DNA of 64,000 nucleotides from Clostridia bacterium. GTDB lineage: Bacteria; Bacillota; Clostridia; Oscillospirales; CAG-272. The notes beneath the pieces were generated by a model. The model did not search any database, was not told where the DNA came from, and was given only the letters and a program-made list of their open reading frames with translations. The stretch covers positions 438 to 64,437 of the forward strand of contig JAFTIL010000025.1 of NCBI GenBank assembly GCA_017456905.1. Reading direction: 5' to 3'. The translations under genes and the position numbers were made by a program. Of the stretch, positions 17,543 to 40,801 are shown in pieces (position 1 is the stretch's first letter; each line of letters opens with the position of its first letter).

Positions 17543-17570
17543 ATCCGTACCTCATAGATCGAGCATTAAA

Positions 17571-17585
17571 AGAACGATTTGTTCT
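17571..17585. promoter_or_regulatory. palindromic operator candidate AGAAC-N5-GTTCT
   Basis: Lies 29 nt upstream of the LexA-like start. Resembles a Cheo box (GAAC-N4-GTTC) but with a 5-nt spacer. Confidence 0.4.
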
Positions 17586-17660
17586 GTTAAGAATGATACC
17601 ACGAAAGAGAGGATTTGTCAACGGGTTTCGGAGCAGAAAATCTGGCAGAGAGGGAAGGTG

Positions 17661-17864: not shown

Positions 17865-18070
17865 ACCTGTGTCCTCCTTTCTCTGTGGTTGCTATTACTA
17901 TACCATACGGGAGGGGGAATGTAAACTTACGGGACTGGACAGTTTTGAGACAGGGGTGGATTGTTTTGTTTCGTTGGTGGAAGGATTTCCTTCAATCTCT
18001 TCTGTGTTTGTTTTCAATATTACGAATCCTATGGATTAGTATTTTCATCTTACACACATTACCAATCGAC

Positions 18071-18103
18071 AAAAATCCCTGCAGCTCAAAAACGCTGCAG
18101 GGA
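18071..18103 (-). terminator. intrinsic terminator of the RR-HK operon
   Basis: tccctgcag/ctgcaggga stem followed by TTTTT on the minus strand. Confidence 0.7.
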
Positions 18104-18123
18104 TATGATATTGTTTCGCCTAA

Positions 18124-19437
18124 TCAATTATCCAAATTAACCGGCCCTGGCAGAATGATCTGTACCCCAAACATTCCGAATTCTTCAAAGTAGTCAATCA
18201 TGCCGTGATAGTCAGAAACGATCTTCTCAACGATCTGGTGTCCCCAACCGTGGGAGTCTCCGGATTTCTTCGTAGTTCGAAGTTCTTTATTGTTTTCCAA
18301 TACAGACTTTTTAACCGTGTTCTTGCAGATAATAATGCGATTGGAATTTTGTTTGGAGAACAAGAGTTCTATTCGCTTCTCTTCTACCTGCCCAACCGCC
18401 TCTATGGCATTATCCAAAATATTGCCCATGAGGCAAGCAAGATCAGCGTCTCGGATATCAGACAGATCGCCAATGGAACCGGAAATGATAACACGGGTGT
18501 TTTTCAAAGCGCACAGCTTGGAATTGATCAGATAATCCAAAATGGTGTTGTCGGACCGTATCAGTTTTCCCATTTGATCGACCTGAGGCAGAAGAGACTG
18601 AATGTATGTCTTACATGCTTCGCTTTCATCTTGCTCCAAGTAACCTGACATAACGGTCAGATGTTGCTTCATGTCATGCTGCACTTTGCGCACATTCTCC
18701 CAAACTGCCGAGGCATCATTATGGCGAGCCTTTTCAAACGCCATTTTTTCTTCCAATAGTTTTAGCTCATATCTGCTTTTTTGCAGCTTTTGAATTTGAT
18801 ACAGAAGGATATATAGAAATACATTCGTTAAAATAAATGCAAGAACGATAACGAGAATATGTGTCTGAAAATTGGTTGCTTCAGGTAAAACTGCTATGTA
18901 CAATGCGGCTCCTAAACCAAACATTGTAGCCAGCGATAGAAAGAAAGTCAATATCCCATTCCATATATTCATGGCTTCTTCAGATTTAAAAACATGAAGA
19001 ATAAATTGCAGGATCGAGAATAGGGCGATCTTGTGCAAGAATATATAGATAAATCGACTAACTCCCGTAGAACCCAGCATTAAAACTTCGAAATCTTTTA
19101 TGATCATGGACAAACCCATATACAAGAAACTACTGAGAAGAACAAATGTTACCTCATATATGCAGGCAGCCATAATGGCACGGAATTTGTGCTTTTTGGA
19201 TATCCATAATGAAAATGCAGTCGCAATCAAAAAAAGTACGATTGAGATAACCGGATAATAGTCTGGCAAAAGGAAATCGCCAATAAGAGTAATACCAAAC
19301 AACAACAAAATCGCCGGAATGGTTAATTTACTCGTTTTAAATGTAACATGATTATACCGAATTATAAAGTATACGAAAAGAATGCTATCAAACAAGGACG
19401 TTGCTATTTCAACGATAAGACCGATCGTATCTGTCAT
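18124..19437 (-). CDS. AgrC-like sensor histidine kinase (polytopic sensor plus GHKL ATPase)
   Basis: About 6 N-terminal TM helices. H-box VQHDMKQHL, N-box LMGNILDNAIEA and G-box GDSHGWGHQIV. ATGA overlap with the RR gene. Confidence 0.8.
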   Translation of the reverse strand: MTDTIGLIVEIATSLFDSILFVYFIIRYNHVTFKTSKLTIPAILLLFGITLIGDFLLPDYYPVISIVLFLIATAFSLWISKKHKFRAIMAACIYEVTFVLLSSFLYMGLSMIIKDFEVLMLGSTGVSRFIYIFLHKIALFSILQFILHVFKSEEAMNIWNGILTFFLSLATMFGLGAALYIAVLPEATNFQTHILVIVLAFILTNVFLYILLYQIQKLQKSRYELKLLEEKMAFEKARHNDASAVWENVRKVQHDMKQHLTVMSGYLEQDESEACKTYIQSLLPQVDQMGKLIRSDNTILDYLINSKLCALKNTRVIISGSIGDLSDIRDADLACLMGNILDNAIEAVGQVEEKRIELLFSKQNSNRIIICKNTVKKSVLENNKELRTTKKSGDSHGWGHQIVEKIVSDYHGMIDYFEEFGMFGVQIILPGPVNLDN

Positions 19438-24500: not shown

Positions 24501-27500
24501 TTTGGACTACGCTGCTGAACGAGTCTTCGATAGTTTGTCTTTTGAAGCCAATCATACTTCCGGTATTGACACCTATAAAATTTCTTTCATTGTAAAGGGT
24601 ACTGCTACTGATTGCACAGAAGCTATCGTTTATGCGGATAATTTCATGTTGGAAAAGAGTATTGGCCCCAGCTCTTATACCATGATTCAATATGGCAATT
24701 TTGAAGCATTTTCTTCTCTTGAAGAAAATGCAATCAGTAACTTTTGGAATATTGCCTCCGATTCCAGTTACAGCAGCATTAGTAATGAAGAATTGCATCT
24801 TTATAGCAGCATTGAAAAGCAAGCTTTTGCATCGCAAACCATCTATAGTGCAAGTTCTGCTGCGTTGGATCAATACGATAGATTGGGAACTGTATACAGC
24901 CCTTCCGGAACATATGTTATCTCCGGCTTTGCACAAAGCGATGATGCTGTTCCTTCCGCGAGCGGATATTTTGCTCTTCGGGTCGAAGTAGAATATTATG
25001 ATAAAACAAATGGCTCCGATGTTAAGAATTTCCAATTCGATTTTTTGGACTCATTGAATGATAAGCAATTTGTAACAGGTTCATTTGAATTGGATAATAC
25101 TCGCTTCATCAAAGCAATTCGTGTTATCTGCGACTACAGCAATCAGCCCGGTGATGCGATTTTCGATGACATCAGCGTAGTCAGAGTGTCGGACAATAGC
25201 GTTTCCTCCTATGAATACTACACACAGGAAGAGGGTTCTCATGCTGCCGGCAAGATTAAAACACACCGTACACCTCAAACTACGACAAAATATTATTACG
25301 ATATCGCTACTGGTCAAGTATCTGAGTATGATACGTATACTCTTGGTGTTCTCAAGAACATGACGCTATGCTTCTACAATTCTTCCTCCAAAAAACTGGA
25401 AGAGCAGTATGATATGCGGTTCCGTGAGGATGGGTCTCTAATTGATGAGACTGTGACACTTCATACATATAACACATATGGTATGGATACCATTACAGAT
25501 ATGTATGTCATAACATATGATCCTGACGATGATAATGTCGTTGAAAGCACTTCTCCCAAATTGCGCAGCCAAACCGGATATATTACTACCTCTGGTTCTC
25601 ATATTTTCGGAGCTGTAAGCTATACCACCGATACCTCCGGAGTAAGTATGTACTATCAGTATGATAGCGCTACCGGCTGGCTGAAATTCGAGTACACGCT
25701 CAATTACTACGGTCTATACTATACCTATGATGGAATGGGACGAATAACGGCTGTTAATCCTCTGGAGTATTCTCCTACCGATTCGCTTTTTTATGCGTCA
25801 ACCACCGAAGAAGAAGTAGAATATACGTACAATGCTAAGGGACAAATCAGTCAGATGGACACCAAAACCACATCGTATGCATATACTTATGATGATTTTG
25901 GCAATACTACTTCCATTAAAGCGGGTAATAGCGTGTTGGCCCAGTATCAGTACGACCAGTTTAATGGTAAGCTCCAGACAATGACTTACGGCACGGGAGA
26001 AATTGTCCGCTATGTATACGACGAACTTGACAGAATTTCTGAAATATGGTATACTGTTCTCGGAGAAGATCCCGACTGCCGTTATCGATACACTTATACC
26101 GATCGCGGATCGCTGTCTCGTGTGGAAGATTTTGTAATTAGTCAAGAAATGCTGTATCAGTACGATGCTTCTGGCAATTTGATTGGCTGCACAGTAGTCG
26201 ATACGACGGAGAATGTGGTGCTTGCCGGCTATACGTATTGGTACGACGAAGAAAATCGCCTCTCTGAATATGAATACGGTTATGATTACTATTACGGAAC
26301 CGAAAATATGTTCAGCACGGTCTATGGACTGTATACATATGGTGAGGATCAGTCTATCGAACAATATACGCTGTATAGCGATTCTACCTGCGTAGCCAAA
26401 ATCAATTATAACTACGACAAAATGAATCGCTTGGATAGCAAAACATATACATATCCGAGCTTTAACCAGCAGGTCTTGTATACATACAAAGATCGCAGTT
26501 CTACCCTTTCAACGGTTCAGGTGTCGAAATACACCTCCAAGATCAACAATACTACATCTTCGGAATATACTTATACATACGATACCCACGGGAATATTAA
26601 GAAGATTGTCGACCTCGAAGGAAATATTACCACATATGTTTATGACGACCAAAACCAGTTGACCCGCGAGAATTTCAGCAATGCTGCTGATTCCACCAAG
26701 AGTTATACATATGTGTATGAATACGATAAAGCCGGCAACAGAACCAGTAGAAAGAAATATGCTTATACCACCGGTTCTGTCGCATCGCTGACTCCTACCT
26801 CTACCCAAACCCTGACCTATAGTACCGGGGCATGGGGCGATCAGTTGGCAAATACCACGTATGACGCCTTGGGAAATCCTCTGACCTACAACGGTTACGC
26901 TATGACTTGGGATGGCCGTCAGCTTATGGAAATGAGCATGACCGGTGGGCAGTTTGTCTATAGCTTCACATACAACGACGAGGGCATCCGTACAAGCAAA
27001 AATGCCGCCGGAAGTTTACACATCTATACCTTGGAGGGTTCCAAGGTGGTCAAGGATAGTTGGGGAAACCGTATGCTCCTTTTCCTGTATGATGAAAGCG
27101 GTTCTCCCATCGGCCTGCAATATCGAGACACAAGCTATGCCGAAGGGGTATTCGACACATACTATTTTGAGAAAAATCTTTTCGGTGACATCATCGCCAT
27201 TTATAATTCTTCTGGCACCAAGATTGGCACCTATACCTACGATGCATGGGGCAACTGCACTACAAGCACTACATCCGAATCTACCACCGCTGAAAAGCGA
27301 GTCGTAAAGAATTATAATCCCTTCCGTTACAGGGGGTATTTCTACGATTATGAGTTGGGTCTGTATTACTTGCAGAGTCGGTATTATAATCCTAACACTG
27401 GTAGATTTGTTCAACCAGCAAGCATATCAAGCTTAAATTGTGCATCTATTTATTCTTTTAACCTATATGCGTATGCAACTAATGATGCTGTGGGAATTAA

Positions 27501-28125
27501 ATATACTACAAGTGGATATGGTTTAAATGTTAGCAATGATATGGAAAGCACAATTACTTCAACCAGATTAAACCCCGCTTCGCATAACCTCGAGACTACT
27601 GTTTATGGAAAAAGCAAAAGAATAAAATTCAATTTAGACTGGCTTGCCAATGGAATATCTACTAGTTCTACCATCCACGGATTGTTTACTTCGGGTGCAA
27701 CATTACTAAATCACATTGGATACTTTAATATCGGCAAAAATATTGGAGCCTTCTCCGACGATATGATTTTGCTTGGATCGTCTGTGAAAAAAGGGATTCT
27801 AGCATTTAATGAATTTAGTTGGGGATTAGGAAAAGCAGATGTGTTTAGTATAGGGCTGGGAGTGGTTCTAGATATATACGATAGTTACCAGCGTGATGTA
27901 AGTACAGGAGGGATCATTTTAGGTGCAACTTTAACCGCTGCCAAAGGTGTGGGACTAATATACGCAAACAAATTGATTATGTCTGGTGCAACATCAATCG
28001 GGTCAGCTATTTGCCCTGGCCCAGGTACAGCGGTTGGTTTTGTAGTTGGAGGGATTGTATGTATTTTTGTTGATGTTTTTGTAAGTAGCTGGGTTGACGA
28101 ATCTATTGATTCAATAGTTGAATAG
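21541..28125 (+). CDS. Sec-dependent RHS/YD-repeat polymorphic toxin (WapA-like) with a variable C-terminal domain
   Basis: 2194 aa. N-terminal signal peptide (VPTNVFA-E). Many YD repeats (YTYD..GN, YDALGN). RHS core end YNPFRYRGYFYDYELGLYYLQSRYYNPNTGRF. About 200-aa C-terminal tip. Confidence 0.9.
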   Translation: MKMENNKRFMTRRAFSMWIKTVACVLSILMMLYAVPTNVFAELIDAIDGALENQADEVTVEDTLKKEVFEVIDRREETVKHFRTEDGSFTAVQYNVPIHEKDENGEWQDIDNTLSESGSEYATSNARVKFAKKTTGNETLFTLHDGNRKITMSLSGANKKVAGQVTNTQTEFPEDATQLQKMMTLDKLSSKILYPEILEGVDLEYVVESCNIKENIIVKERADSYSYTFEIKLNNLEAELCVDGSVAISDPDTDEVVYTIPKGYMFDADGEYSDAVEYTLTNVGNGKYSLTVTADAEWINDEGRAFPVTIDPTLSNPSYNTVDAQISSGSRYYSNDIIHIAGSTYLYWKSNLPSLPEDAYIVSAYLSYLSSNGSEDTIGAYLVTADWGSSGVPAINTTLIAHQQYELADMLALNYWFNWDITEAVVAWYNGTPNYGISLRNMTDSNEGMALYSYEATQAICRPQFCIAYRDVSGIESYWSYATQNAGLAGSGAVNQATGELTFSTDMLAMTDHLFGYTPALVYQSSKSAEENTNEYNENSPFIYYTTGLGWHLSTDISVCWKPFETSDGTEYMIYTYTDGDGTEHCFTASSTDYVNSAYDEDGLGLYLYHSINSSYMQITDASGNIQTFTVYSSNNGYMEEGALISSYADSNGNKIQFNRDVYGSIMSLGLIPTGLAEITFLNFTYSSDGYLSQIEDSTYGRIVSFEYSNEPNDDADECDGVYLRSVEYSHTEGGTTCVDALIKYSYTNIVNESTESDTYRLSTATDTLSGLTIEYAYNDAGQVIAVTEYASEDGEITAEGQSIQFSYNVRFTDIQTSGSDDVLGTDDDIITRYCFDRAARAVSVYSTDLSGETIYGASAGTYESEEADESSNNKLKSSVVSGGSSTNYLINGGFELTNSSAVPYWYASSSSRISINDPTYGLSKEVCFTPAYNAQDSIYQLVKLDNGKYTVSFDYSTISCENVDIWIQVQSNTRSTVIAEKKLAVNLDYAAERVFDSLSFEANHTSGIDTYKISFIVKGTATDCTEAIVYADNFMLEKSIGPSSYTMIQYGNFEAFSSLEENAISNFWNIASDSSYSSISNEELHLYSSIEKQAFASQTIYSASSAALDQYDRLGTVYSPSGTYVISGFAQSDDAVPSASGYFALRVEVEYYDKTNGSDVKNFQFDFLDSLNDKQFVTGSFELDNTRFIKAIRVICDYSNQPGDAIFDDISVVRVSDNSVSSYEYYTQEEGSHAAGKIKTHRTPQTTTKYYYDIATGQVSEYDTYTLGVLKNMTLCFYNSSSKKLEEQYDMRFREDGSLIDETVTLHTYNTYGMDTITDMYVITYDPDDDNVVESTSPKLRSQTGYITTSGSHIFGAVSYTTDTSGVSMYYQYDSATGWLKFEYTLNYYGLYYTYDGMGRITAVNPLEYSPTDSLFYASTTEEEVEYTYNAKGQISQMDTKTTSYAYTYDDFGNTTSIKAGNSVLAQYQYDQFNGKLQTMTYGTGEIVRYVYDELDRISEIWYTVLGEDPDCRYRYTYTDRGSLSRVEDFVISQEMLYQYDASGNLIGCTVVDTTENVVLAGYTYWYDEENRLSEYEYGYDYYYGTENMFSTVYGLYTYGEDQSIEQYTLYSDSTCVAKINYNYDKMNRLDSKTYTYPSFNQQVLYTYKDRSSTLSTVQVSKYTSKINNTTSSEYTYTYDTHGNIKKIVDLEGNITTYVYDDQNQLTRENFSNAADSTKSYTYVYEYDKAGNRTSRKKYAYTTGSVASLTPTSTQTLTYSTGAWGDQLANTTYDALGNPLTYNGYAMTWDGRQLMEMSMTGGQFVYSFTYNDEGIRTSKNAAGSLHIYTLEGSKVVKDSWGNRMLLFLYDESGSPIGLQYRDTSYAEGVFDTYYFEKNLFGDIIAIYNSSGTKIGTYTYDAWGNCTTSTTSESTTAEKRVVKNYNPFRYRGYFYDYELGLYYLQSRYYNPNTGRFVQPASISSLNCASIYSFNLYAYATNDAVGIKYTTSGYGLNVSNDMESTITSTRLNPASHNLETTVYGKSKRIKFNLDWLANGISTSSTIHGLFTSGATLLNHIGYFNIGKNIGAFSDDMILLGSSVKKGILAFNEFSWGLGKADVFSIGLGVVLDIYDSYQRDVSTGGIILGATLTAAKGVGLIYANKLIMSGATSIGSAICPGPGTAVGFVVGGIVCIFVDVFVSSWVDESIDSIVE

Positions 28126-28139
28126 GGAGGGTAGTATTC

Positions 28140-28637
28140 ATGACAAAAAAAATAGTTTCTATTTTTGATATACTGCTATACATAGCTATATGTATACCTT
28201 TCTTAACAATTTCAATATCAATTTTTTTGTTTGGAAGATTAAATGATTATGTTTGGATTTTATCGCATTGGTATTTGCTATTATTATTTGCCGTTGGTAT
28301 AATAATACCAATTGTGGGATTCCCTTTAATCAGATATGTCACAATAGATGATGGTGAAGTCGTATATTTTTATTATGCCTCTTTTACAACCAGCTGGGAA
28401 AAAATTGCTAATAGTATTGATGAAAAATGGAATCAACGTTTTTATATTTCTGAAATATCTTCTGTTGAAATTGTCAAATTAACAAAGGATGAGAAAAAAA
28501 GATTGGTTTATCTAAAGCATTTAAGAAACAAATATTTGAAAATAAATTTGAAATATGGTTCACCCAAATATATTTTTATAGGAAACTATTCAAATTTACA
28601 AATTCAAAAGATGATTAAATTATTTGTATCAAAATAA
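28140..28637 (+). CDS. candidate cognate immunity protein (membrane, 165 aa)
   Basis: GGGAGGG RBS 14 nt after the toxin stop. Two TM helices. Very AT-rich. Confidence 0.55.
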   Translation: MTKKIVSIFDILLYIAICIPFLTISISIFLFGRLNDYVWILSHWYLLLLFAVGIIIPIVGFPLIRYVTIDDGEVVYFYYASFTTSWEKIANSIDEKWNQRFYISEISSVEIVKLTKDEKKRLVYLKHLRNKYLKINLKYGSPKYIFIGNYSNLQIQKMIKLFVSK

Positions 28638-29818: not shown

Positions 29819-30322
29819 TTCTTGTTTCTCCCATTGCAGAGTGATATGCTCTGTAATGGGAGAGTAGGGAAGAATCAATTTTCTCTACGCCAAATTATAT
29901 GCTAAGGGCCTTCCGGCCGAACAGAGAAATCTGTTTGTCGGGGAGGCTCTTTCTTACTGTGTGGAGGCTTGTCTACATTGGTGGACAGAGCGTATCAGAA
30001 AAGTCTTCGCTGTCAAGGTGAAAAAACTTCGCTGAAAACAAAATTCAACAGACATGGATGCAAACTTTTTTCTTGTACTCAAAAATAGCTTGCTCAGAAC
30101 CTTGACTGCCGCAGACTTTTCCGATGGGGTGTAGGTGCCCTTTGGGCAGAAAGGAGAAAAGTGTATGCAGATAAGAGCAAGATACAAATTAGGGCGAAGC
30201 CAATGCAAGTGTGGCTCAAAAGTGTCCGGTAACATCGCAAAACTCGCCACATCCGTCAGTTTACATTTGTACGCTAAACGTGTATGCTTATGGGTGAAAT
30301 CAAAAGAAAGGAGATTGCACCC

Positions 30323-31840
30323 ATGAAAACAGCCGTTATCTATGCCCGCTATTCCAGCGAGCGACAAACCGAACAATCCATCGAAGGTCAGCTCAGAGAG
30401 TGCATGGCCTACGCCGAGCATCACGATATGATGGTCGTAGATACTTACATCGACCGAGCCATGACCGGCACTAATGACAACCGAAATGATTTCCAGCGTA
30501 TGCTAAAGGATGCACAGAAAAAGGCGTGGGACGTCGTACTGGTGTACAAGCTTGACCGCTTCTCACGAAACAAGTACGAAATGGCGATCCACAAGAAGAC
30601 ATTGCGGGATTACGGCATATCCTTGGTGTCTGCCAAGGAGCATATTCCTGACGGACCCGAGGGCATCATTCTTGAATCGCTCCTTGAGGGCATGGCGGAA
30701 TACTACTCGGCAGAGCTGGCGCAGAAGGTCAGCCGAGGGATGAGGGAGACCCGCATCAAGGGCAACTACGCCGGAGGAGGGATCCCTTATGGGTACAAGG
30801 TCGAGAATCGGAAATTTGTTGTTTCCGAGGATGAGGCGCAGGTCGTCATCCGTATATATGAGATGTATGCCTCGGGGGTGATTGCAAAGAACATTATCAA
30901 GGCCCTTACGGATGAAGGGATCATGCACAGTTCGGGTAAGCCGTTTACAAGGGCCATCATATACGGCATCTTGCAGAACGAGCGTTACATCGGAGTGTAT
31001 CATCATAAAACCGAAGGTGCCTACACGCAAACCTTCCCGCCAATTGTTCCACAACACCTGTTCGATACAGTTCGAGCCATCGCGGAAGGTAACCGTCATG
31101 GCAAGCATCCCGAGGACGTGGTCTACTTGCTTCGTAACAAGCTCAAATGCGGTTACTGCGGTAAGTCGATCACATCCGAGTCGGGAACATCACGAAATGG
31201 TTCTGTTGTTCGCTATTACAAATGCAGTACGCGGAAAAAGGATTCGACCAAGTGCCACAAGACACCCATCCGCAAAGAGATACTGGAGCAACTGATCGTG
31301 GATGTTACCCTTAAGGTCCTAAACAATCCGCAAACCATTAATGCGATTGCGGACCGCGTATTTGAAGCTCACGAAAAGCGGATAGCTGACACGTCGGTGA
31401 TCAACATTCTGGAAGCCGAGCGAGACAAGATCCGCAAGGCTCTCGACAATATGCTCAACGCCGTGGAGCAAGGCATTATCACCAGCTCTACCAAGCAACG
31501 CATCGAAGAATTGGAAGCCGCCTTGGAAGTTGCAGAAGGAAAGGTATTGGTGGCACGATCCAAGAGCAAGGTGCAGATCACGCCGGAAGATATCAAGAAA
31601 TTTATCCTCAAAGCTCTCAAAAAAGAACCTCGGCTGATGATCAAAACGCTCGTGAAGGAAGTGATCCTATACGATGACAAAGTGGAAATCTACTACAACT
31701 GCATAGATAAGAAAAAACCCGATGACTTGGATCATCGGGCTTTTTGCATATATAGGCAAGATTGCGATATTGATCCGAAGGATTTCGGGTTGTATCGGAA
31801 CGTAGCAGGGTATGCATTCGCATTAGAAATGTACTTTTAA
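30323..31840 (+). CDS. large serine recombinase
   Basis: N-terminal resolvase domain AVIYARYSSERQ (catalytic Ser) ...VLVYKLDRFSRN. Recombinase domain. Zn-ribbon CGYCG...YYKC. Coiled-coil C-terminus. AAAGGAGA RBS. Confidence 0.9.
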   Translation: MKTAVIYARYSSERQTEQSIEGQLRECMAYAEHHDMMVVDTYIDRAMTGTNDNRNDFQRMLKDAQKKAWDVVLVYKLDRFSRNKYEMAIHKKTLRDYGISLVSAKEHIPDGPEGIILESLLEGMAEYYSAELAQKVSRGMRETRIKGNYAGGGIPYGYKVENRKFVVSEDEAQVVIRIYEMYASGVIAKNIIKALTDEGIMHSSGKPFTRAIIYGILQNERYIGVYHHKTEGAYTQTFPPIVPQHLFDTVRAIAEGNRHGKHPEDVVYLLRNKLKCGYCGKSITSESGTSRNGSVVRYYKCSTRKKDSTKCHKTPIRKEILEQLIVDVTLKVLNNPQTINAIADRVFEAHEKRIADTSVINILEAERDKIRKALDNMLNAVEQGIITSSTKQRIEELEAALEVAEGKVLVARSKSKVQITPEDIKKFILKALKKEPRLMIKTLVKEVILYDDKVEIYYNCIDKKKPDDLDHRAFCIYRQDCDIDPKDFGLYRNVAGYAFALEMYF

Positions 31841-31987
31841 ACTTTTTTGACAAATTATTATATAATCTTGAAAGGACTTAAACGAAAGATAGGGGGCGTA
31901 CGGTTAGCAACAGCACGCCCGCCCTGTGGTCAATTGTCTTTCAAAAATCTCCCATGAATTATAAACCAATACTAACTGTCTGTGAAA

Positions 31988-34495
31988 TTAAACAATCCGT
32001 TCTTTCAGTTTGGTATAAAGACTCAATTGTTCATACAAATACAAATCCGAAAAATAATCACGGTAGAACTTGTTGGGAGAAATTTGGTTTATGGGCTCTT
32101 CACTATCGCAGTAGCGCCCAATGGCTGCGTATACGTTATCCCCCTCTAGAAGATAATCTTCATAATTTGCCGAACACAAGTCATCGTAGTTAACAGGATC
32201 CACCTTGTTCGCTATCTGTTTCTGCGCGGCGTCTTCCAAAATATCGTTGAAATATCGAACTTTATAGTCATGAATATTTCCCCGACTTCTAGAATCCTCT
32301 AGATATTTTTCGCTTGCTTGATTGGCCACTTTGACAGCGAATCTGCGAAAATCCAAATCTTCCATTTGCCAACAGTAGTATATTATGGCATAAAAGATTG
32401 CGTTGGCAATGATATTTGTTACATAACCCGACGTGCTTGTTCCATATAATTCGTCAACAATTGATTTGATGTGACTCGTCAATGGTTTAATCGCGTCGTC
32501 TTCTGTAACCGCATCAACAAACCCTTCATCATATGTTTGTTTTTTGATGGCTTCTATTTCTTTTTCATCACGTTTTTCCTCCTTGGCCTTTTCGGCTGCT
32601 TTTTCTACCTTTTCCTTCACATCCTTTTTTATTTTATCATCGTTTGGCTTAAATTGATATTCAGAAAATTTCAAATACTCTCCCCAAATCATAGCCTTCA
32701 GCAAGTATGGATTGGGTGTCATATTGTGCTTTAAACCAAGATACCCATAACCTTGACCCAATTCATCTGTAAAGTCCTGTATCTGTAAGAAGCGCTTATC
32801 GTTAGCTAAATCCTTAGCCCTGTATTGACTGAAGGTGTGGTGAATAGAGCAGATCCGCAACTGTTTGTACGGGTTGTAATAAAAATCAAAAATAAGTCGC
32901 CCGGCAGCCAAACCTATGCCTGTCTCTTTTGTAACAACATCAACATGATCGCACGCTTGAATGGTCACGATCTGTCTGCGATCAAACCAAGACAACCGAT
33001 CATGAATGTATTTGCCATCACCACAGCGACAAGTATACTCCACCCTTTTTACCGACTTACTAAAAATCGGTTTAGCATCTGCATTTACAAGCTCATTAGC
33101 ATTCTCAATGGGTTCTTGGCCTGATTGGGCATTATTAGATGACTTGGGTAAGTCAAGGTATGACCGAACAATCATATCCGATTTACGTATATAATTTGTT
33201 TCGTCAAACATCTTCAAGAAAGGAGTATGACATTTCTCGCAGAACATAAGATTAGGAGAATTCGTAATCTCGAAATATTCCCGATCCCATTCCTGAGCAT
33301 CATCGCAAAGGCGGAAGAGCCAGGACAGCGGATCCCGCGAGAATTGCATTTTGTAATGAAGTGTCTCCCCCTTTCGCTTGCTGTAGTAAAAATCAAGCGT
33401 GTGGTTATAGATAATGACAATACCGTACTCCAACGCAACCTGCTGCTCAATAGGCAGCGCATGGATGCGTCCGGTTTTGTGGTAATGCAACGCCAACAGC
33501 AACGCGGATAGCGTTCCGTGATCTCGATCCTCGAATCGTTCCTTGATCTCCTTGGGATCAACGATTTGAAACAACAGCGTATCACTCAAAAGATCCTGCA
33601 GTTGGCTGAATGTTACACTCTCGTTATCCAGCAAAACATTGAGTGGCGGGAAAAACTCGATGGCACGATCCTGTGTCTCGTAGCAGTGAGCGATTGGATA
33701 CCCAATATCGTGAAACAATCCTGCGATTGCGGAAGCCGCATACGCAATGTATCGCATGAAATAGCAGTCTGCGGGTTCCGCATCGGGGAGATGGTCCTTC
33801 TCTGCGGAAAAATTGTTTTTAATCACTGTCTTCACGTCTGAAGGATATTGCTCAAACTGATACTTCCACTTGCGTCGCTCGCTGTGAATGTACTCTGACA
33901 ACTTGCCGACAGAGGGGTTGAACAGATATTTCATAACATTGTAATAGATGTACCGATTATTCAACAGGGAATACATCATATACACATTTCTCATTTCATG
34001 AATAAAATGATCGCGATAATAGCTGTTCCGATGCTCTTTAAAATTCAGGTTTACATGCATGCTCCATTCGAAATCCGGATAATCCTCATCGTACAGAGCA
34101 GAGAGACCGGGAATGCCGATGTAATCGACAATAAACTTTTCGGCAACGGTTTCATAGAGATCCTGAAACTCCATAGCCTTTTCCAAACTGCCGTATACCA
34201 GTTTGGTATTCATAATCATGGAGGCTGTGTCATGAGGCTCTATGTTCGTAGGCCTTTTGTCACGCTCGTAAATCAGGATGTTATCTCGATCATCATTGGT
34301 GAGAGAAAACTTGTCCCAATCTTTTTTTGCTTTTATTTCTGACTGAATACGGCAACCATACTTATACGAAAGGGGATCAAAATAGTCATCAATCCGATCT
34401 TCAGTCTGATCATCAGACTGAAGATCAAATTCAACATCAAAATGATCATGTTTGATATAATCGCGGAAATTTTGAGTATCAAACCGTATGCTCAT
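31988..34495 (-). CDS. HD-domain protein (dGTPase/SAMHD1-like motif pattern) with a Cys-rich ribbon and a long helical C-terminus
   Basis: 835 aa. Ordered motifs DHFIHEM, LFHDIGYPIAH (compare HDxGxxPFxH), DRDHGTLSAL and LCDDAQEWDREY (compare DVDKWDY). CEKCH...CRCGDGK. ATGA overlap with the upstream gene. Confidence 0.7.
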   Translation of the reverse strand: MSIRFDTQNFRDYIKHDHFDVEFDLQSDDQTEDRIDDYFDPLSYKYGCRIQSEIKAKKDWDKFSLTNDDRDNILIYERDKRPTNIEPHDTASMIMNTKLVYGSLEKAMEFQDLYETVAEKFIVDYIGIPGLSALYDEDYPDFEWSMHVNLNFKEHRNSYYRDHFIHEMRNVYMMYSLLNNRYIYYNVMKYLFNPSVGKLSEYIHSERRKWKYQFEQYPSDVKTVIKNNFSAEKDHLPDAEPADCYFMRYIAYAASAIAGLFHDIGYPIAHCYETQDRAIEFFPPLNVLLDNESVTFSQLQDLLSDTLLFQIVDPKEIKERFEDRDHGTLSALLLALHYHKTGRIHALPIEQQVALEYGIVIIYNHTLDFYYSKRKGETLHYKMQFSRDPLSWLFRLCDDAQEWDREYFEITNSPNLMFCEKCHTPFLKMFDETNYIRKSDMIVRSYLDLPKSSNNAQSGQEPIENANELVNADAKPIFSKSVKRVEYTCRCGDGKYIHDRLSWFDRRQIVTIQACDHVDVVTKETGIGLAAGRLIFDFYYNPYKQLRICSIHHTFSQYRAKDLANDKRFLQIQDFTDELGQGYGYLGLKHNMTPNPYLLKAMIWGEYLKFSEYQFKPNDDKIKKDVKEKVEKAAEKAKEEKRDEKEIEAIKKQTYDEGFVDAVTEDDAIKPLTSHIKSIVDELYGTSTSGYVTNIIANAIFYAIIYYCWQMEDLDFRRFAVKVANQASEKYLEDSRSRGNIHDYKVRYFNDILEDAAQKQIANKVDPVNYDDLCSANYEDYLLEGDNVYAAIGRYCDSEEPINQISPNKFYRDYFSDLYLYEQLSLYTKLKERIV

Positions 34496-35865
34496 TTATC
34501 CTTGTCCTCCTTTTTTTCTCCTGTTTTCCAATTGTAGCCGTCTTCATTCCGGTACGCTTCGCCCGCTGTAATCACAAAAGGAGTATCAAGGGTGGAGGAT
34601 AATGCCAACTTGGGATCAAATTTGTACTGTATTACTTTATCGGAAACAATATGGGCCGTTTTTTGGCCTCCCTTATTATATGTAACCCCGCCAGGAAAAA
34701 CTCGTCCAACTTCGTCTGTTAAAGGTGTTATGGGGGCCTTTTCAATTTTTTTCTGATGCTTATTTACAATTGGACCACTAACATCAAATACCTGATTGAA
34801 AACAAACTGGATGGTAGTGGGAAACGCATTGTTATACGAGGTGGTATGGACATAGTCCTCCACCCAAGTCAAATTAGCCTGAATGTGTGCAACATCATAT
34901 GTTGAAACCACGCGCAACTCCAAGCCGGCCTTTTTTTTCTTTACTTTTTCGTCTTTCTGAAGAATATCGTAAATACACTCCGAATAGGGATCGGAATTGG
35001 GGGGCATATCAAAAATTACATGTGTAAATTTTTGGATGGAATTATCATTAAGCTTTTGGACAAAACTTCGTAGCACCTCTTTGTAATAACGAATACTAAC
35101 TACACTTCGGTATCCGCTGGCGTTCTTAGGTTGGAACATATTTTTTACCGCTTGCTCGGGCGAAGAAAATACGATATGTAGATTTTCACTGACAATAACA
35201 GCATTTTTCTCCTCAACGGTGACATCGGAGGATACATTTTCACCATTTCCATCGTTTGCGCTGGCGTCTTTTCTTTTAACCGCATAATCTCGCCAAACAA
35301 CAGTATCTTTTAATTTGGCATAGTCTTGAATTACCAGATCGGTAAAATATCTTTTTTGCTTGTCTTCATGTTTCTCAGATTGACACACTAAATATATTGA
35401 TCCGTTCAGTAAACCCGAATCGACCATTGCAATGTCGTTTTCTGATTGCAGAGAGCCGTCGCCCTTTATTTTTCCATCAACAAATCTCTCCAAACAGGTT
35501 CCCAAAATATCCATGTCAATGATAATTACATTTCGTTTGGGATCCTCTTCCAGCAACTCAATGGCCGTGCGAAGCGAAACAGAAGACTTGCCGCAACCAC
35601 CCTTTACAGAAGTTACTATTATGTATTCAAGATCATGGTTATCTTTCGAAGTAGCATCAGTAGCTTTAGCGGAACTGTCAGCTGCACGATTATTGGAAGA
35701 GGTTACTTTTCCTTGGTTCTCTGCAACCTTTTGGGCTATCTGCTCGAAACTTTGTTGGGGTGAAATTGCAGAAATACTCTCGCCGTTTTCGTCAAGGATA
35801 TTCTGTTGTGTCAAGTCGGATCCTTCTTCAGGCATTTGGGCCATATTTCCTTTTTTACTATCCAT
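34492..35865 (-). CDS. ParA/MinD (SIMIBI) type ATPase with an N-terminal low-complexity extension (start uncertain, 35844-35910)
   Basis: Deviant Walker A VTSVKGGCGKSS. A' motif IIIDMDILG. Walker B-like HVIFDMPPNSD. Confidence 0.7.
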   Translation of the reverse strand: MDSKKGNMAQMPEEGSDLTQQNILDENGESISAISPQQSFEQIAQKVAENQGKVTSSNNRAADSSAKATDATSKDNHDLEYIIVTSVKGGCGKSSVSLRTAIELLEEDPKRNVIIIDMDILGTCLERFVDGKIKGDGSLQSENDIAMVDSGLLNGSIYLVCQSEKHEDKQKRYFTDLVIQDYAKLKDTVVWRDYAVKRKDASANDGNGENVSSDVTVEEKNAVIVSENLHIVFSSPEQAVKNMFQPKNASGYRSVVSIRYYKEVLRSFVQKLNDNSIQKFTHVIFDMPPNSDPYSECIYDILQKDEKVKKKKAGLELRVVSTYDVAHIQANLTWVEDYVHTTSYNNAFPTTIQFVFNQVFDVSGPIVNKHQKKIEKAPITPLTDEVGRVFPGGVTYNKGGQKTAHIVSDKVIQYKFDPKLALSSTLDTPFVITAGEAYRNEDGYNWKTGEKKEDKDK

Positions 35866-35904
35866 AACAAAACGGCAACAGATACCATAGCACCGTATCT
35901 GTTG
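35866..35904 (-). terminator. intra-operon hairpin (possible partial terminator/attenuator)
   Basis: CAACAGATAC-9 nt-GTATCTGTTG followed by CCGTTTTGTT on the minus strand, between gene 1 and gene 2 of the operon. Confidence 0.4.
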
Positions 35905-35981
35905 CCTCACTTCCTTTCTCTGTTTGATTTTGTTTTACTGTCGCAAAGGTTTTTTCGGAGAAAATATTATTGATTTTGAAA

Positions 35982-38675
35982 TTACCGATTTTTTATAGCG
36001 GAAGTTTTTGCGTTTTCGTAAAGCTCCAACGCCTGACATCCGCAAATCTCACATGCTTTATAGATTTCGTCAAACAGCCTCAACTTTCCAAATTCCTCAT
36101 CCACCTTTTTTACCTCGTCCATTAAATACAGCAGGTAGTAATACTCAATATCCGGTAAATATCCGCTTAACCGCTTGAGCGTTCGGACAACAATCCAGCG
36201 GTCAGGAAGAAGGGTTGACGGAATTTTGCAAACATCCTCAATTTCATTTTTGTGTTCGGCCGGTAAAGACTCTACCCCCGGAACTTCAGAAACTTCAAAG
36301 GTTGTACGATAGTCTTGCTCATAATGCAATTCAAGCAACTGATAGTGAATCGCATCCTCCCAGTATCTCATCCGGCTATACAGAGTGTCTTTTAAAGCGT
36401 TTTTATAACAACACCTAAAACTACCATCGCGAAGGTTCAAAATTTTATTGAATAACTGTTCCAAATAACTTGTGAAGTCCCGACGATAATCTTCGGATAT
36501 TGCGCCCTCTCGATCGTACCAATGAATAGTATAGTGCGCTGTTTTCTCCAAATGGTCATACTTCGACTTAAAGCAAATAAAAATTTGCTTGGTTGCACGA
36601 ATCAAATCATGACTTCCCGGCTGAGAATCCTTCAAAGAAAGTATTCGGTACAACTGAGAAGTTTCTTCCGCAGAGATATTAACATCATCCAACCACTCAT
36701 AATTAATGTGTTTGAACAAATTCCAAAACGTAAACCAAATAAAATCCTTTTGAGAGCCTTGTTCGTGCTTGTCGGAATAGAATTCAAACGACCTATTGGG
36801 TTTTGATTTGAAAGTGAATAAACGAAAGCTTTTTCCTCGGAATTGTTCTTCCCGAGCCACATTCCATTTGACTGCACGCGTGTTTTCCGCACTATGTGAG
36901 GCAGACAACATCACGTGCACATGCATGTTGCGGTGTTTCTCTGTGGTGGTTACTTTCCGCAATTCATCAATCAAATCTTCCTTAATCGCGTATTCAAAAT
37001 GGCCTTCGTAATCCATAACCCCCAGGCCAAACATGTTGAACTGACGAACCATTCTTCTTACGGGCAAATTTGTTGGAGGAATCAAACTGATTTTTTTCTC
37101 TATGGATTCATACGGGAAATTTACTGCACGGGTCTTAATCCAATCTTTAAATTGATCAAGGGGATAATCGGATTTGGGAACAACGTCTGTCTTGTACAAC
37201 GCAGGGCAATCTAAAATAAAAATCACATCGTGCGCGCCCTCTACGTCGCTTCTGACCTCTGAGTCAAATTTCCCCAAAAAGTATTGCAATGCGCGCGGAT
37301 TCAGATACGGGCGTTGCTCTGGACTGCTATCCCGATATAGTATTACCGGGCAATTCCCTAATTTCAACTCTTTATATTCCAATTGGACTGCATTAGCATC
37401 GATAGAAATCCAATTTTTCGATTTATTATATTCATTATACTTATTGCACTTTTCATCCTTGGCGTTGTAATACACACCGTACTCAAATTGGTATTCCGGA
37501 TATTGTCCCGCAAGATATTTATGCAGGCAACTCAATCCGCGAGGTGAGTTTTCGTCAAGATCCACACTATTCACTATAAGAATTCTTATCTTCTTATTCT
37601 TATTCTCTGGCGCTTCAATCTTGGTTTTATACTCCGTAATATAAGCACTAATCTTTTCTATCAAACGAAAAGGCTCAATGTTCTCAACATGCGATTTGTG
37701 ATCAATACGGCAACAAGACGGATAACAATCATCATCCTCCATAGCAGTGATATGGACACGACCATGTTTTATCGTTTTCAAATAAAAATAATTAGCTATG
37801 CTTTCGTTCAAAAACTCAGCTGTTAATTCCAGCATTTGCTCGTTCTTCTTATCGTCGCTATGATTCCATTGATCAACCAGTTCAGCTATCATTTGACCCA
37901 CGACAATATAGTTCTCCACATAAACAGGAGAGAAGAAACGATATAGAAAATAATGATTATTCTCTTCTTTATTTGTTTCTCCGCGTCCTTCTGTTTTCGA
38001 TTTATCCAAATAACCCGATACTAACGCCATTCTGGTAACATCGTCGTTAATCAACTCGTTGCTGTAGAGATTGCAACATACAACAATTTCAATCAGTTTG
38101 CGATAACTCTCCAAATATTTTTTAGCCCAAAATATCGCAATCTGAATTAATTGAAAAGACTTTCCAATTGCCTCATTAATCTCTTCTTGAGAAATTTTAC
38201 CTGTTCCATCTTCCAGTATTGATCTGAGCAAACTCAAAAGGTCAAAAGAAAGAAGATCTTTCAACCGATCAACTTCCTCGTGCATCTCCCTACATATAGC
38301 AATGATTCTTTCGCCTTCCTCTTGGTTGTAGATTAGAGATGCTAAGTGTGATCCAATACCATGCCATTCGGGCAATTCAACAAAGCCCTCGCTTGCCTCT
38401 TTCGAATTCTGTCCATTCAAGTAGAAGAAGTGCAAGACATAATAGGAACTGAGGCTATCTTGTATTAGCTTAGCACGCTCGTCGGGGCGGTCGTTCAATT
38501 GGACTTCATCATCACCAAATAGGGTTGATTCATTGTTCAAAAAAACACTTCGCCAGGAAACAATCTCCTTCAAAAAAGTTTTCCAGTCATTAACGCCGAA
38601 AAAACTTTTTCTCTGGCTTCGGGGGTGTTCAGTCCCTTTAACGATTGTTTTGTCGTTGTTTTCATGAGTATCCAC
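35982..38675 (-). CDS. large protein with no recognised domain (897 aa)
   Basis: GTG start with AGGAGGGG 7 nt upstream. No Walker A, nuclease or TM motif was seen by eye. AT-rich codon usage shared with the two downstream genes. Confidence 0.65.
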   Translation of the reverse strand: MDTHENNDKTIVKGTEHPRSQRKSFFGVNDWKTFLKEIVSWRSVFLNNESTLFGDDEVQLNDRPDERAKLIQDSLSSYYVLHFFYLNGQNSKEASEGFVELPEWHGIGSHLASLIYNQEEGERIIAICREMHEEVDRLKDLLSFDLLSLLRSILEDGTGKISQEEINEAIGKSFQLIQIAIFWAKKYLESYRKLIEIVVCCNLYSNELINDDVTRMALVSGYLDKSKTEGRGETNKEENNHYFLYRFFSPVYVENYIVVGQMIAELVDQWNHSDDKKNEQMLELTAEFLNESIANYFYLKTIKHGRVHITAMEDDDCYPSCCRIDHKSHVENIEPFRLIEKISAYITEYKTKIEAPENKNKKIRILIVNSVDLDENSPRGLSCLHKYLAGQYPEYQFEYGVYYNAKDEKCNKYNEYNKSKNWISIDANAVQLEYKELKLGNCPVILYRDSSPEQRPYLNPRALQYFLGKFDSEVRSDVEGAHDVIFILDCPALYKTDVVPKSDYPLDQFKDWIKTRAVNFPYESIEKKISLIPPTNLPVRRMVRQFNMFGLGVMDYEGHFEYAIKEDLIDELRKVTTTEKHRNMHVHVMLSASHSAENTRAVKWNVAREEQFRGKSFRLFTFKSKPNRSFEFYSDKHEQGSQKDFIWFTFWNLFKHINYEWLDDVNISAEETSQLYRILSLKDSQPGSHDLIRATKQIFICFKSKYDHLEKTAHYTIHWYDREGAISEDYRRDFTSYLEQLFNKILNLRDGSFRCCYKNALKDTLYSRMRYWEDAIHYQLLELHYEQDYRTTFEVSEVPGVESLPAEHKNEIEDVCKIPSTLLPDRWIVVRTLKRLSGYLPDIEYYYLLYLMDEVKKVDEEFGKLRLFDEIYKACEICGCQALELYENAKTSAIKNR

Positions 38676-38707
38676 TCTCGTGCCCCTCCTACATTAAGCA
38701 ATTCTCC

Positions 38708-38733
38708 CCACCCTTGATTAAAATCAAGGGTGG
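38708..38733. promoter_or_regulatory. 26-nt near-perfect palindrome in the 5' leader of the operon
   Basis: ccacccttgatta/aaatcaagggtgg lies between the predicted promoter and the gene 1 start. Confidence 0.5.
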
Positions 38734-38854
38734 AAGAGTAGAATAACTAATTTATTTTAACATTATTCCATGTCCTCGGTACAAATCCTACATGTATGCA
38801 ATTTAAATTTTTTGTAAATTTTTCGTTATCGGCTTTCCTTCGTCCTACATACTA

Positions 38855-38884
38855 AGTATACCATAAGTATATGCTCCTTGTCAA
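38855..38884 (-). promoter_or_regulatory. sigma-A promoter of the three-gene operon
   Basis: Minus strand TTGACA (38879-38884), an 18-nt spacer ending in TGG, then TATACT (38855-38860). Confidence 0.55.
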
Positions 38885-39015
38885 GAAAAAATCATTTGTG
38901 TTCATTTGTTTTCTAAATATACACACAGGGCTCTGGTATTCTGACACCACAAAAAAGAATAAGAGAAAAGGCATCCGACCCATCTGCAACAAAGGACAGT
39001 TCAGTTGCATGGACT

Positions 39016-39097
39016 AGATTGCGATATTGATCCCCAAGACTTCGGATTAAGATAGAACGTATCGGAATACGTATTCACTTTGGAACTGTATTTTTGA
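39016..39097 (+). pseudogene. relic of the 3' end of a related serine recombinase gene
   Basis: Ungapped, codon-phased match to 31759-31840 (hand count 59/82 nt, first 18 nt identical). Translates DCDIDPQDFGLR*NVSEYVFTLELYF* versus DCDIDPKDFGLYRNVAGYAFALEMYF*. Confidence 0.7.
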
Positions 39098-39272
39098 ACT
39101 GCAATTCATATTGAATTTCAAAAAAATCGTGCTATACTGTATGTGTATAATTTGATTTGTTCAACGTTTTCAAGGACGAAAAAAGGCTATCAAACAAGGA
39201 TAAATTCGGCCGCTGATATAGGAGACTGCGCGCTTTTCAAGGTTGTTCAACTGGGAGAGTCCCAGGTAGGCC

Positions 39273-39309
39273 AACATAAAAGGCACCCTGCGTGGATGCC
39301 TTTTATGTT
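39273..39309. terminator. strong hairpin with A/T flanks (bidirectional terminator-like)
   Basis: aacataaaaggca...tgccttttatgtt 13-bp outer stem. Confidence 0.5.
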
Positions 39310-39437
39310 GCTTATTCGAGCAGTAAACAGAAGCCTGCGAAAGCGCGCCAGTGAATCAAGGTAGAAGACTGACCAGGGACGTGCTTTCTGCTGTGACGGA
39401 ACGGCACAGCGGCGTTCAGAATCCGCTCGGGTAGGCC

Positions 39438-39473
39438 AAAAAGAACAGTACCTACGGGTACTGTTCTTTTTGC
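39438..39473. terminator. bidirectional intrinsic terminator downstream of the HTH-TPR gene
   Basis: aaaaagaacagtacc...ggtactgttcttttt. Confidence 0.7.
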
Positions 39474-39510: not shown

Positions 39511-40575
39511 TTATTTGTGCTGTTCATTGAGCTGCTTTAGTAAGCGACTTTTTTGTCGTTCAGCTTCAATTACAGCAGCGTCGTTGTCGCTGTATCCCCA
39601 TTCATCTTTAAGGCACGTAATGAGCCTATCATAAGTCTCAGTTGCATGCTTATAATCCCCCAATAATTCATAGATGACTGAAATACCGTGAAGGGCATCT
39701 GTAAATCTCGGCTTATGATCTACTTCTGTCTTCCAAGATCTTTCATAATACTCGATGGCCTTTTCATATGCACATTTTCGAGCGTAATATTGTGCCGCTT
39801 CGAAAAGAAAGCCGCTATGGTCACTATAGCTCTTTAAAGCCGTTTCTATGATCGTATCTGCCATTTTCTCATCATACTCCGCCAGCGCGATGTGAGCTTT
39901 GTAGACGGGAATTAAAAAGGGCTTGTGGGAGGGAAGGGTTTGGCAAATCTCCAAATATTGCGTTGCCTCCCTTGTGCGGTGGTCGGCGATCAAATTATCC
40001 ATGATCTCGTAATAGGGCAGGGGAGTTTTAGGACTCTCTGTGTCGCTTTCAATGACATTTTTATAGAAATCAATGATGGCCGTGTGGTTGGCTATATTCC
40101 AGTCCCAGATATGCGCGCCCTCTGCCTTCTGCAGTAGCCATTGACAATCCTTCTTTTCGGGACTTTCCATAATGGCCTCTCGTGCATATCTGCTGACTCG
40201 TCTGGAATCCGCCTCCATGCGGTGATGATATAGGTGTGCTAACAGGCTGAGGATCTTGGTTTTATCCTTGCTTTCGTCAAGCTGATTTTTCAAAAAAGTC
40301 TCGTATTCCTTGAAAACGTCTGTGGGAAATTCTTCTTCAAGATCCAGTCTCTTTTCGATTCGTTGAAGTCTTTGGTCAGTGGTCAAGTCAAAAAGATCGT
40401 CGATGGTCACGCCCAGCTCGCTTGCCAATGTGGGTAACAGCGTGATATCCGGCATGGTAATGGCGGTTTCCCATTTTGAAACCGATTGCGCGCTGATGCC
40501 CAGCTTAGCTCCAAGCTGTTCCTGTGTCAATCCCGCCTTATATCTGAGTTGTTTGATTTTATTACCGATTTCCAT
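39511..40575 (-). CDS. XRE-family HTH plus TPR-repeat regulator (RRNPP-like architecture)
   Basis: GGAGGG RBS. N-terminal IKQLRYKAGLTQEQLGAKLGISAQSVSKWE. TPR-like C-terminal repeats (AIEYYERSW, ATETYDRLI). Confidence 0.7.
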   Translation of the reverse strand: MEIGNKIKQLRYKAGLTQEQLGAKLGISAQSVSKWETAITMPDITLLPTLASELGVTIDDLFDLTTDQRLQRIEKRLDLEEEFPTDVFKEYETFLKNQLDESKDKTKILSLLAHLYHHRMEADSRRVSRYAREAIMESPEKKDCQWLLQKAEGAHIWDWNIANHTAIIDFYKNVIESDTESPKTPLPYYEIMDNLIADHRTREATQYLEICQTLPSHKPFLIPVYKAHIALAEYDEKMADTIIETALKSYSDHSGFLFEAAQYYARKCAYEKAIEYYERSWKTEVDHKPRFTDALHGISVIYELLGDYKHATETYDRLITCLKDEWGYSDNDAAVIEAERQKSRLLKQLNEQHK

Positions 40576-40801
40576 GTGTTTCCCTCCGATTGATAAATTC
40601 AAAGGCCTTTGTGAGGATATTTTAACACAAATATCCATCAAAATCAATAACGCAGTTTCATTGTAGGCTCACCTAATGGGCGATATACCGAGCTCGTCCT
40701 TGAATAACCGATAAAGATAGGACTCAGAGTATCACAGTTTTTCATGCCCCGAGAAACCTATCAGGTATTTCGCATTTTATCATCATATCTCGCTACGGAC
40801 A

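Follow-up and report, generated by a model that had tools for sequence, protein, structure and literature searches.

Gabija, Septu, PARIS, Wadjet and Hachiman are defence operons in which an ATPase is paired with a nuclease. A different architecture is found in the nucleoside triphosphate (NTP)-dependent ternary conflict systems, which are organised around vWA-MoxR (or TRAFAC GTPase) cores and whose repertoire includes novel STAND NTPases as well as MinD/ParA-like domains that are predicted to be inactive (Kaur, Burroughs, Iyer and Aravind 2020; PMC7159879). Here, we examine a three-gene operon that lies in a 64,000-nucleotide (nt) stretch of DNA from a gut Clostridia bacterium (Oscillospirales, CAG-272; GenBank assembly GCA_017456905.1, contig JAFTIL010000025.1, positions 438 to 64,437 of the forward strand); this whole stretch is called the window below. 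The three genes, named g1, g2 and g3, are co-directional on the minus strand and are given in window coordinates. They encode a large protein of an uncharted family, a divergent ATPase of the ParA/MinD class and a protein with the ordered metal-ligand motifs of the HD superfamily followed by a zinc ribbon. The trio is a single operon, its members co-evolve and it is mobile; our favoured but tentative reading is that it forms a conflict module, self-contained and spread by horizontal transfer, and that this module is most likely an undescribed anti-phage or anti-plasmid defence system.

Like Gabija, Septu, PARIS, Wadjet and Hachiman, the trio couples an NTPase to a putative phosphodiesterase effector, and it resides on mobile elements and in variable islands with a patchy, horizontally spread distribution. 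Unlike these systems, it employs in g2 an ATPase of the SIMIBI ParA type and not one of the ABC, AAA+, SMC, OLD or helicase types, and the candidate effector g3 is HD-like, not a Toprim, HNH or PD-(D/E)xK enzyme; g1, g2 and g3 gave 0 matches to the PADLOC models of the five systems. The resemblance to the ternary conflict systems (PMC7159879) lies in the three-component, fast-diversifying organisation and in an nSTAND3-like P-loop protein that occurs in a five-gene variant of the locus. In contrast to them, the trio has no vWA or MoxR component and its ParA-like protein retains all the catalytic residues; none of the Pfam domains for vWA, MoxR or TRAFAC GTPases was found in the members of the operon. 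The PADLOC candidate PDC-M28, of which the literature library searched gave no description, is touched by g2 (model PDC-M28B, E = 1.2e-4), but the match is confined to 78 of the 438 profile positions, around the P-loop, and g1 and g3 match no PDC model. A preliminary description of the locus, made from its sequence alone, had known of no named system with this trio, and this judgement has held: the comparison with named systems was made against PADLOC-DB v2, both g1 and g3 were negative in PADLOC, Pfam, NCBIfam and PHROGs, and word searches of the literature found no description of such a trio.

The operon and its expression signals are as follows (ORF, open reading frame; aa, amino acids):

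35982..38675, minus strand: g1, 897 aa, GTG start, from the ORF list
34492..35910, minus strand: longest ORF of g2, 472 aa, from the ORF list
34492..35835, minus strand: likely product of g2, 447 aa, from the public gene call for the identical metagenome contig
31988..34495, minus strand: g3, 835 aa, from the ORF list
38855..38884, minus strand: sigma-70-type promoter, TTGACA-18 nt-TATACT with an extended -10 TG, 11/12 matches
38708..38733, minus strand: perfect palindrome with 11-bp arms, CCACCCTTGAT-TTTA-ATCAAGGGTGG, from direct reading of the sequence
31712..31745, minus strand: terminator-like hairpin, 240 nt downstream of g3 and within the 3' end of a convergent recombinase gene

The three co-directional genes that had been placed behind one promoter do form a single operon, which runs on the minus strand. 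Its TTGACA-18-TATACT promoter with the extended -10 is the best scoring of 13 promoter-like sites between 31.5 and 39.6 kb. The other signals reported earlier were also recovered: a AGGAGGGG ribosome-binding site (38690-38683) precedes the GTG start of g1 by 7 nt, the coordinates of the g2 stop and the g3 start give the ATGA overlap, and the block is indeed AT-rich, with a GC content of 0.38-0.44 over the trio, or about 39-40% for the whole block, versus 0.45-0.57 in the flanks on both sides. The true start of g2 is probably situated about 25 codons inside the longest ORF. The palindrome (38733-38708) is located in the ~180-nt 5' leader of the operon and may be an operator or an RNA hairpin; an Rfam scan of this leader matched 0 families. 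Transmembrane segments are predicted in none of the three families, all three proteins being soluble, and no secretion signal was found in g1, g2 or g3.

The conservation of this arrangement was examined in a scan of one genome per species for 185,579 species. Loci with g3 were present in 50 of these genomes, and in about 47 of the 50 the same order recurs, a large protein (690-1130 aa) followed by an ATPase with the KGGxGK[ST] motif and then by a g3-like protein, with intergenic gaps that in most cases range from -13 to +95 nt. The co-occurrence of the trio in other genomes, which the preliminary description had proposed as a check, is thus found in about 47 loci; the genes have also evolved together, with correlations of r = 0.86-0.91 between the distance matrices of g1, g2 and g3 (Mantel p = 0.001, 30 loci), and once two of them are fused. 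The fusion (L045, 1314-3848, in a metagenome-assembled genome of the Lachnospiraceae) joins the ParA-like ATPase (aa 1-299) in frame to the g3-like protein in a single polypeptide of 844 aa. Nearly all the carriers are Clostridia (Lachnospiraceae, Acetatifactor, Christensenella, Oscillospiraceae, Eubacterium and Hungatella), with single loci outside this class in Rikenellaceae, Treponema and Calditrichales. The nearest neighbours of these last three copies are Clostridia copies, at 42-46% identity, and the trio therefore appears, on sequence comparison, to have spread horizontally and across phyla. Homologues of g3 were absent from 72,556 plasmids (PLSDB) and from 50,697 phages (GenBank), and IMG/VR yielded one distant partial match.

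All three genes are under purifying selection, with dN/dS values against the closest relative of 0.19 for g1, 0.28 for g2 and 0.25 for g3. The divergence from this relative is concentrated in aa 151-250 of g2, aa 598-700 of g3 and aa 701-750 of g1; the g2 and g3 segments are mosaic or hypervariable patches, with 28-58% identity to a relative whose identity elsewhere is 84-95%, and at the DNA level positions 35178-35459 of the window are unalignable to it. A more substantial variation is the five-gene variant (loci L028, L030, L038, L040, L042, L043, L046-L053 and L066), in which the nSTAND3-like P-loop protein (~520-570 aa) and a further protein of ~500 aa are added upstream, g1 is longer (960-1130 aa) and g3 is shorter (520-670 aa). 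The short g3 of this variant is missing the C-terminal domain, and the idea that its long g1 had taken this domain up was rejected, a profile of the domain matching only the g3 proteins of three-gene loci. A rearranged locus was seen in Rikenellaceae (L015, 6919-15327), where the ATPase and g3 lead and the g1 homologue (13084-15327) follows ~2.8 kb downstream, after three intervening ORFs.

The preliminary description had assigned the second gene to the SIMIBI ATPases of the ParA/MinD class, and this is sustained both by a match to PF10609 (ParA/NUBPL) of 33.6 bits, against a cut-off of 27.1, that covers only residues 96-147 (the P-loop) and by the conservation of the motifs. All of the motifs that had been quoted for the second and third genes are present, and most of them are invariant across the families. 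In the alignment of 28 g2 family members S-x-KGGxGK[S/T] is invariant, including its signature lysine, and so are the DxD of switch I (D42, D44) and the Walker B aspartate D211 in hhhhD-M/C-P-P; because of this invariance g2 is predicted to be an active enzyme, a divergent but catalytically intact member of its class. Its placement by sequence stops at the ParA/MinD class, with no functional subfamily assigned. The NCBIfam equivalogs all score far under their cut-offs, the weak NCBIfam matches, which include BcsQ and tyrosine autokinase, are to the P-loop only, and the best relatives of the g2 profile in the PDB (Borrelia PF-32, Mrp/ApbC and Soj) align with the first 60-90 residues only. What g2 has in common with these ATPases are the KGGxGK[ST], DxD and hhhhD-x-P-P motifs. 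It departs from them in that the likeness ends after those 60-90 residues, in a long hypervariable insert (aa 151-250) between switch I and Walker B, in lacking a partner motif of the ParB, MinE or Fe-S CxxC kind, and in being coupled, once by fusion, to an HD-motif protein; there is also a clade-specific N-terminal extension of ~70 aa. The possibility raised at the outset that g2 is a plasmid or integrative conjugative element (ICE) partition ATPase with a nearby ParB and parS did not survive: no ParB-like gene is present in the operon of any locus and no repeat array or parS in 28-41 kb of the window, and a ParABS identity is excluded for the trio because these partners are missing. In L066 a separate canonical pair of ParA and ParB_N genes adjoins the module.

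The homologues of g3 make up at least 167 clusters among 5.8 billion proteins, all of them between 520 and 960 aa long and 0 with a Pfam domain. Five motifs, RDHFxH, FHDxGYP, DHG, NHT and CDDxQEWDRxYF, are invariant in the 30 members aligned, as are the ligand set that they provide (H163/H166, H262-D263, H326, H365 and D398-D399) and the zinc-ribbon cysteines C419xxC422...C489xC491. The chain begins with an N-terminal domain, continues with the HD-motif module (aa ~160-405, all helical) and with a zinc ribbon plus beta domain (aa ~407-595), and ends in a helical C-terminal domain that is variable. In the AlphaFold2 (AF2) model (predicted local distance difference test score, pLDDT, 82; predicted template-modelling score, pTM, 0.84) residues 163-404, which carry the His/Asp motifs, are predicted to be all-helical. 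From this motif pattern and the helical prediction, on which the HD assignment rests and which assign no subfamily, g3 probably carries an HD-type binuclear metal site, and the role that we propose for it is that of a metal-dependent phosphohydrolase or nuclease effector. The ordered H..HD..H..H..DD on an all-helical module is shared with the HD superfamily (Cas3 HD, dGTPase/SAMHD1 and the class I phosphodiesterases, PDE). It differs in that g3 matches none of the HD families significantly, by profile or by fold, and in that its module forms part of an 835-aa protein whose N-terminal, zinc-ribbon/beta and C-terminal domains are unique; unlike Cas3, it is accompanied by no conserved helicase or cas genes in the operon.

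Whole-chain Foldseek of g3 against the PDB and BFVD found nothing at E < 0.1, and the best HD-related enzymes from the PDB were the PDE5 and PDE7 catalytic domains at a sub-threshold E of ~6; profile searches of PDB sequences with g3 and with the HD-module profile gave nothing relevant. There was no family match in Pfam, NCBIfam, PADLOC or PHROGs. The traces that did appear were below threshold: Pfam HD (PF01966) scores 0.079 in 1 of the 30 members, TIGR00277 gives 0.057, the Cas3-HD model PDLC00940 matches 3 of the 30 (best E 9.8e-4), and hhalign aligns g3 to the HD domain of E. coli Cas3 with a probability of 2% and to E. coli Dgt over 18 columns around the CDD motif, which holds the last aspartate, with a probability of 29%. 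The preliminary description had proposed ordered HD motifs followed by a cysteine ribbon and a likeness to the dGTPase/SAMHD1 deoxynucleoside triphosphate triphosphohydrolases (dNTPases). Its motifs and ribbon are borne out, whereas the dNTPase identity was dropped as unsupported, since the dNTPase models of NCBIfam, Pfam and PADLOC gave 0 matches, at E <= 1 for g3 of the window and at E <= 0.1 for the 30 members, and only the sub-threshold traces remained. In 3 of the 30 members the zinc ribbon weakly resembles that of recombinases. Distant relatives of the HD-like module were seen elsewhere, fused to an N-terminal GAF domain in a 951-aa protein of a Thermoplasmata archaeon (L057, 6045-8900; E = 3e-7) and alone, without a Pfam match, in Chloroflexota (L058) and Phycisphaerales (L059).

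The family of g1 is the fastest evolving of the three. A phmmer search of 1.84 billion proteins retrieved just 11 representatives and a homologue search with the family alignment only 3 close matches; an iterated family profile joins the upstream genes of 36 loci. The protein has helical N- and C-terminal parts and a central alpha/beta region, and its AF2 model, built from a shallow 12-row alignment, has a pLDDT of 74 and a pTM of 0.80. The earlier remark that the first gene shows no recognisable motif was upheld by library and fold searches alike, with 0 matches in Pfam, NCBIfam, PADLOC and PHROGs and no whole-chain Foldseek match in the PDB (best E 0.33). PADLOC and Foldseek on predicted structures, which had been suggested as checks, thus connect neither g1 nor g3 to a system or a solved fold. 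A hidden inactive ParA-like domain in g1 was considered and rejected, the segment 'DVIFILDCPALY' aligning to Walker B of g2 by hhalign with E = 0.12 and a probability of 0.5%; profile comparison of g1 with g3 revealed no relation. We propose that g1 acts as a sensor or a scaffold.

In the window the trio is carried by a recombinase unit, with the following parts:

30323..31840, plus strand: large serine recombinase (Pfam Resolvase, Recombinase and Zn_ribbon_recom), convergent with g3
31752..31843, plus strand: copy 1 of a 92-bp direct repeat, formed by the recombinase gene's own 3' end
39009..39100, plus strand: copy 2 of this repeat, 72% identity, an orphan fragment of a recombinase 3' end located upstream of the promoter
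29825..39292, no strand: mobile unit of recombinase and trio, approximate limits from blastn against L001 and L002, ~9.5 kb

Two diverged recombinase 3' ends bracket the trio cassette, as is evident from the recurrence of the last 92 bp at 39009-39100. The preliminary description had put the operon directly after a large serine recombinase and inside a duplicated recombinase 3' end. The recombinase is adjacent, but it is convergent with g3 and not upstream of the operon; the duplication is present, yet its copies are just 72% identical over 92 bp. The block 29825-39292 is common to a second genome (L002) in which, by blastn and the junction sequences, the flanks differ, and the trio is consequently the sole cargo of the ~9.5-kb unit. 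No tRNA attachment site was found at the unit boundary. At two places upstream of the unit (~39262-39272 and ~39430-39441) the sequence TTGGCCTACC follows a terminator hairpin, and the 9-mer ACTCTCCCA is found close to both of its ends, including ~29860 (minus strand); these may be remnants of attachment sites. In the related genome L001 the serine recombinase is interrupted, at the equivalent of window position 31222, by a group II intron (17245-19132; RVT_1 and Intron_maturas2).

The surroundings of the trio in other genomes are heterogeneous, and no gene family is conserved in the flanks of the three-gene loci. One locus is adjacent to three serine recombinases and PemK, one lies within a conjugative element with TraG and NlpC/P60, one is beside a tyrosine integrase and Rep, one is next to IS605/TnpB and an SbcC-like ATPase, and L066 has a small resolvase nearby, besides its canonical ParA-ParB pair. 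In three unrelated loci (L006-9, L024 and L067) the trio has flagellin genes on one side and fliD/fliS or PilZ/GT2 genes on the other, and several further loci fall in clusters of glycosyltransferase, DegT or epimerase genes. A PADLOC scan of the flanks (88 large ORFs, three flanking ORFs per side) detected RdrA in two members, DpdF, PDC-M33A and Cas1 in one each, and several type II methyltransferase and restriction-enzyme models in one member each. This enrichment of defence genes is only suggestive, because the PADLOC summary gives no per-protein count, and several PADLOC models can match one protein.

ParA/MinD ATPases must be ATP-bound dimers to bind DNA or a partner protein. Were the trio a conflict module, g2 would be an ATP-dependent dimerisation switch of this class, made in stoichiometric coupling with g3 and held with it in one complex; g3, through its binuclear-type HD site and zinc ribbon, would be the catalytic effector, either a nuclease or a nucleotide phosphohydrolase; and g1 would supply target recognition or scaffolding and control the ATPase cycle of g2. 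The hypervariable patches of g2 and of the C-terminal domain of g3 could then be specificity surfaces or targets of counter-defence. In favour of such a module are the conservation and co-evolution of the trio, its mobility and sporadic occurrence, the defence genes in some flanks, the nSTAND3-like protein of the five-gene variant, the invariance of the ATPase residues and of the HD-type and zinc ligands, the Cas3-HD traces in 3 of 30 g3 members and the solubility of g1, g2 and g3. The role in defence or abortive infection is one that we infer from context, as are the substrate, the formation of a complex and the choice of the sensor protein. Several considerations weigh against it. No component of the trio significantly matches a known defence protein. 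The HD membership of g3 comes from motifs and an all-helical prediction, the profile and fold searches being negative. ParA/MinD ATPases are classically concerned with positioning and not with immunity. The defence enrichment of the flanks comes with no per-protein figure and was sampled over three ORFs per side, the ~7 loci in flagellin or surface-glycan clusters could indicate some other biology, and carriage by mobile elements is equally to be expected of functions that are selfish to the element. A bolder version, which we consider rather unlikely, is that the trio represents a new class of immunity, in which a ParA/MinD-type ATP switch, a device that in cells ordinarily positions DNA, would survey DNA and license an HD-like enzyme of unprecedented fold (g3), while g1 would be the sensor and likewise of a new fold; neither fold would have a solved relative.

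The trio could instead serve the element that carries it, by maintenance or addiction, by the exclusion of competing elements, or by handling DNA during excision, transfer or establishment; the ParA-like ATPase would then position or load g3 as a DNA-processing enzyme. Such a function, which we judge unlikely, would fit with the trio being the sole cargo of a 9.5-kb serine-recombinase unit, with the recombinases, integrases or Rep adjacent to it in at least 6 loci and with its presence in one conjugative element, but most loci have no recombinase in the 8-10 kb read. The ParA family is typical of plasmid and ICE maintenance, and the best PDB relative of g2 is the Borrelia PF-32 partition protein; against this, the trio comes without ParB, a centromere-binding protein or a repeat array, L066 has a canonical ParA-ParB pair of its own, and integrated elements do not need partition. 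The recombinase-like zinc ribbon seen weakly in 3 of 30 g3 members speaks for this explanation, and the 0 homologues among 72,556 plasmids and 50,697 phages speak against it.

Two further explanations take up particular parts of the evidence. According to one, which we hold to be improbable, the trio is an accessory system of the cell connected with flagella or surface glycans, in which a MinD/FlhG-like ATPase would place or regulate an enzyme complex for flagellar assembly or for the nucleotide-sugar pools of glycosylation. The three unrelated flagellin loci and the several glycosyltransferase, DegT and epimerase clusters invite this interpretation, and so do the P-loop-only NCBIfam matches of g2 to BcsQ and tyrosine autokinase. 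These loci amount to ~7 of ~55, however, the remainder having unrelated flanks, and flagellin-glycosylation and glycan loci, being hypervariable, are frequent recipients of foreign genes. Moreover, g1, g2 and g3 have no membrane segment or secretion signal, g2 is devoid of a conserved MinD-type C-terminal amphipathic helix, and the copy in the window sits in a recombinase unit without flagellar genes. The other explanation, to which we also attach a low probability, makes g3 a phosphodiesterase of signalling nucleotides and the trio a regulatory or second-messenger-degrading module, either within a defence pathway or unrelated to one. The H..HD..H..H..D ligands of the binuclear type are common to the phosphodiesterases of the HD superfamily, the distant archaeal homologue has a GAF domain fused in front of the HD-like module, and PDE5 and PDE7 are the only HD-related enzymes among the sub-threshold Foldseek matches. 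These signals are nonetheless far under significance (Foldseek E ~6, and 3e-7 for a single archaeal protein that aligns with part of the module). The operon has no conserved gene for a cyclase or for nucleotide synthesis, and in appearance the zinc ribbon and beta domain are closer to parts that bind nucleic acids.

Under any of these explanations, g1 and g3 are two large, confidently folded families for which Pfam, NCBIfam, PADLOC, PHROGs and the PDB offer no relative, and both move together with a ParA-class ATPase whose motifs are intact. As a defence system, the trio would bring to bacterial immunity a new class of ATPase (SIMIBI) and a new HD-like effector, and its source would be the Clostridia of gut and rumen, in which defence has been little explored; if instead it serves its element, it would constitute a new cargo function for small serine-recombinase elements. 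Being small (6.9 kb), self-contained and equipped with its own promoter, it is directly testable by cloning.

Some features of the window adjoin the unit or recur in the related genome. A regulator gene with HTH_3 (XRE) and TPR domains (39511-40647) lies next to the unit and is probably not part of the module, since it is outside the block common to L001 and L002. The stretch immediately to the left of the unit (21541-28637) holds a 2194-aa RHS/YD-repeat-like polymorphic-toxin ORF and after it a small ORF (28140-28637), a possible immunity gene, in a patch of GC 0.31. Finally, positions 12730-15210 of the window are 79% identical to 19386-21851 of L001, which lie beyond the trio in that related genome, and this likeness points to a shared element of larger size or to a neighbourhood of insertion common to both.

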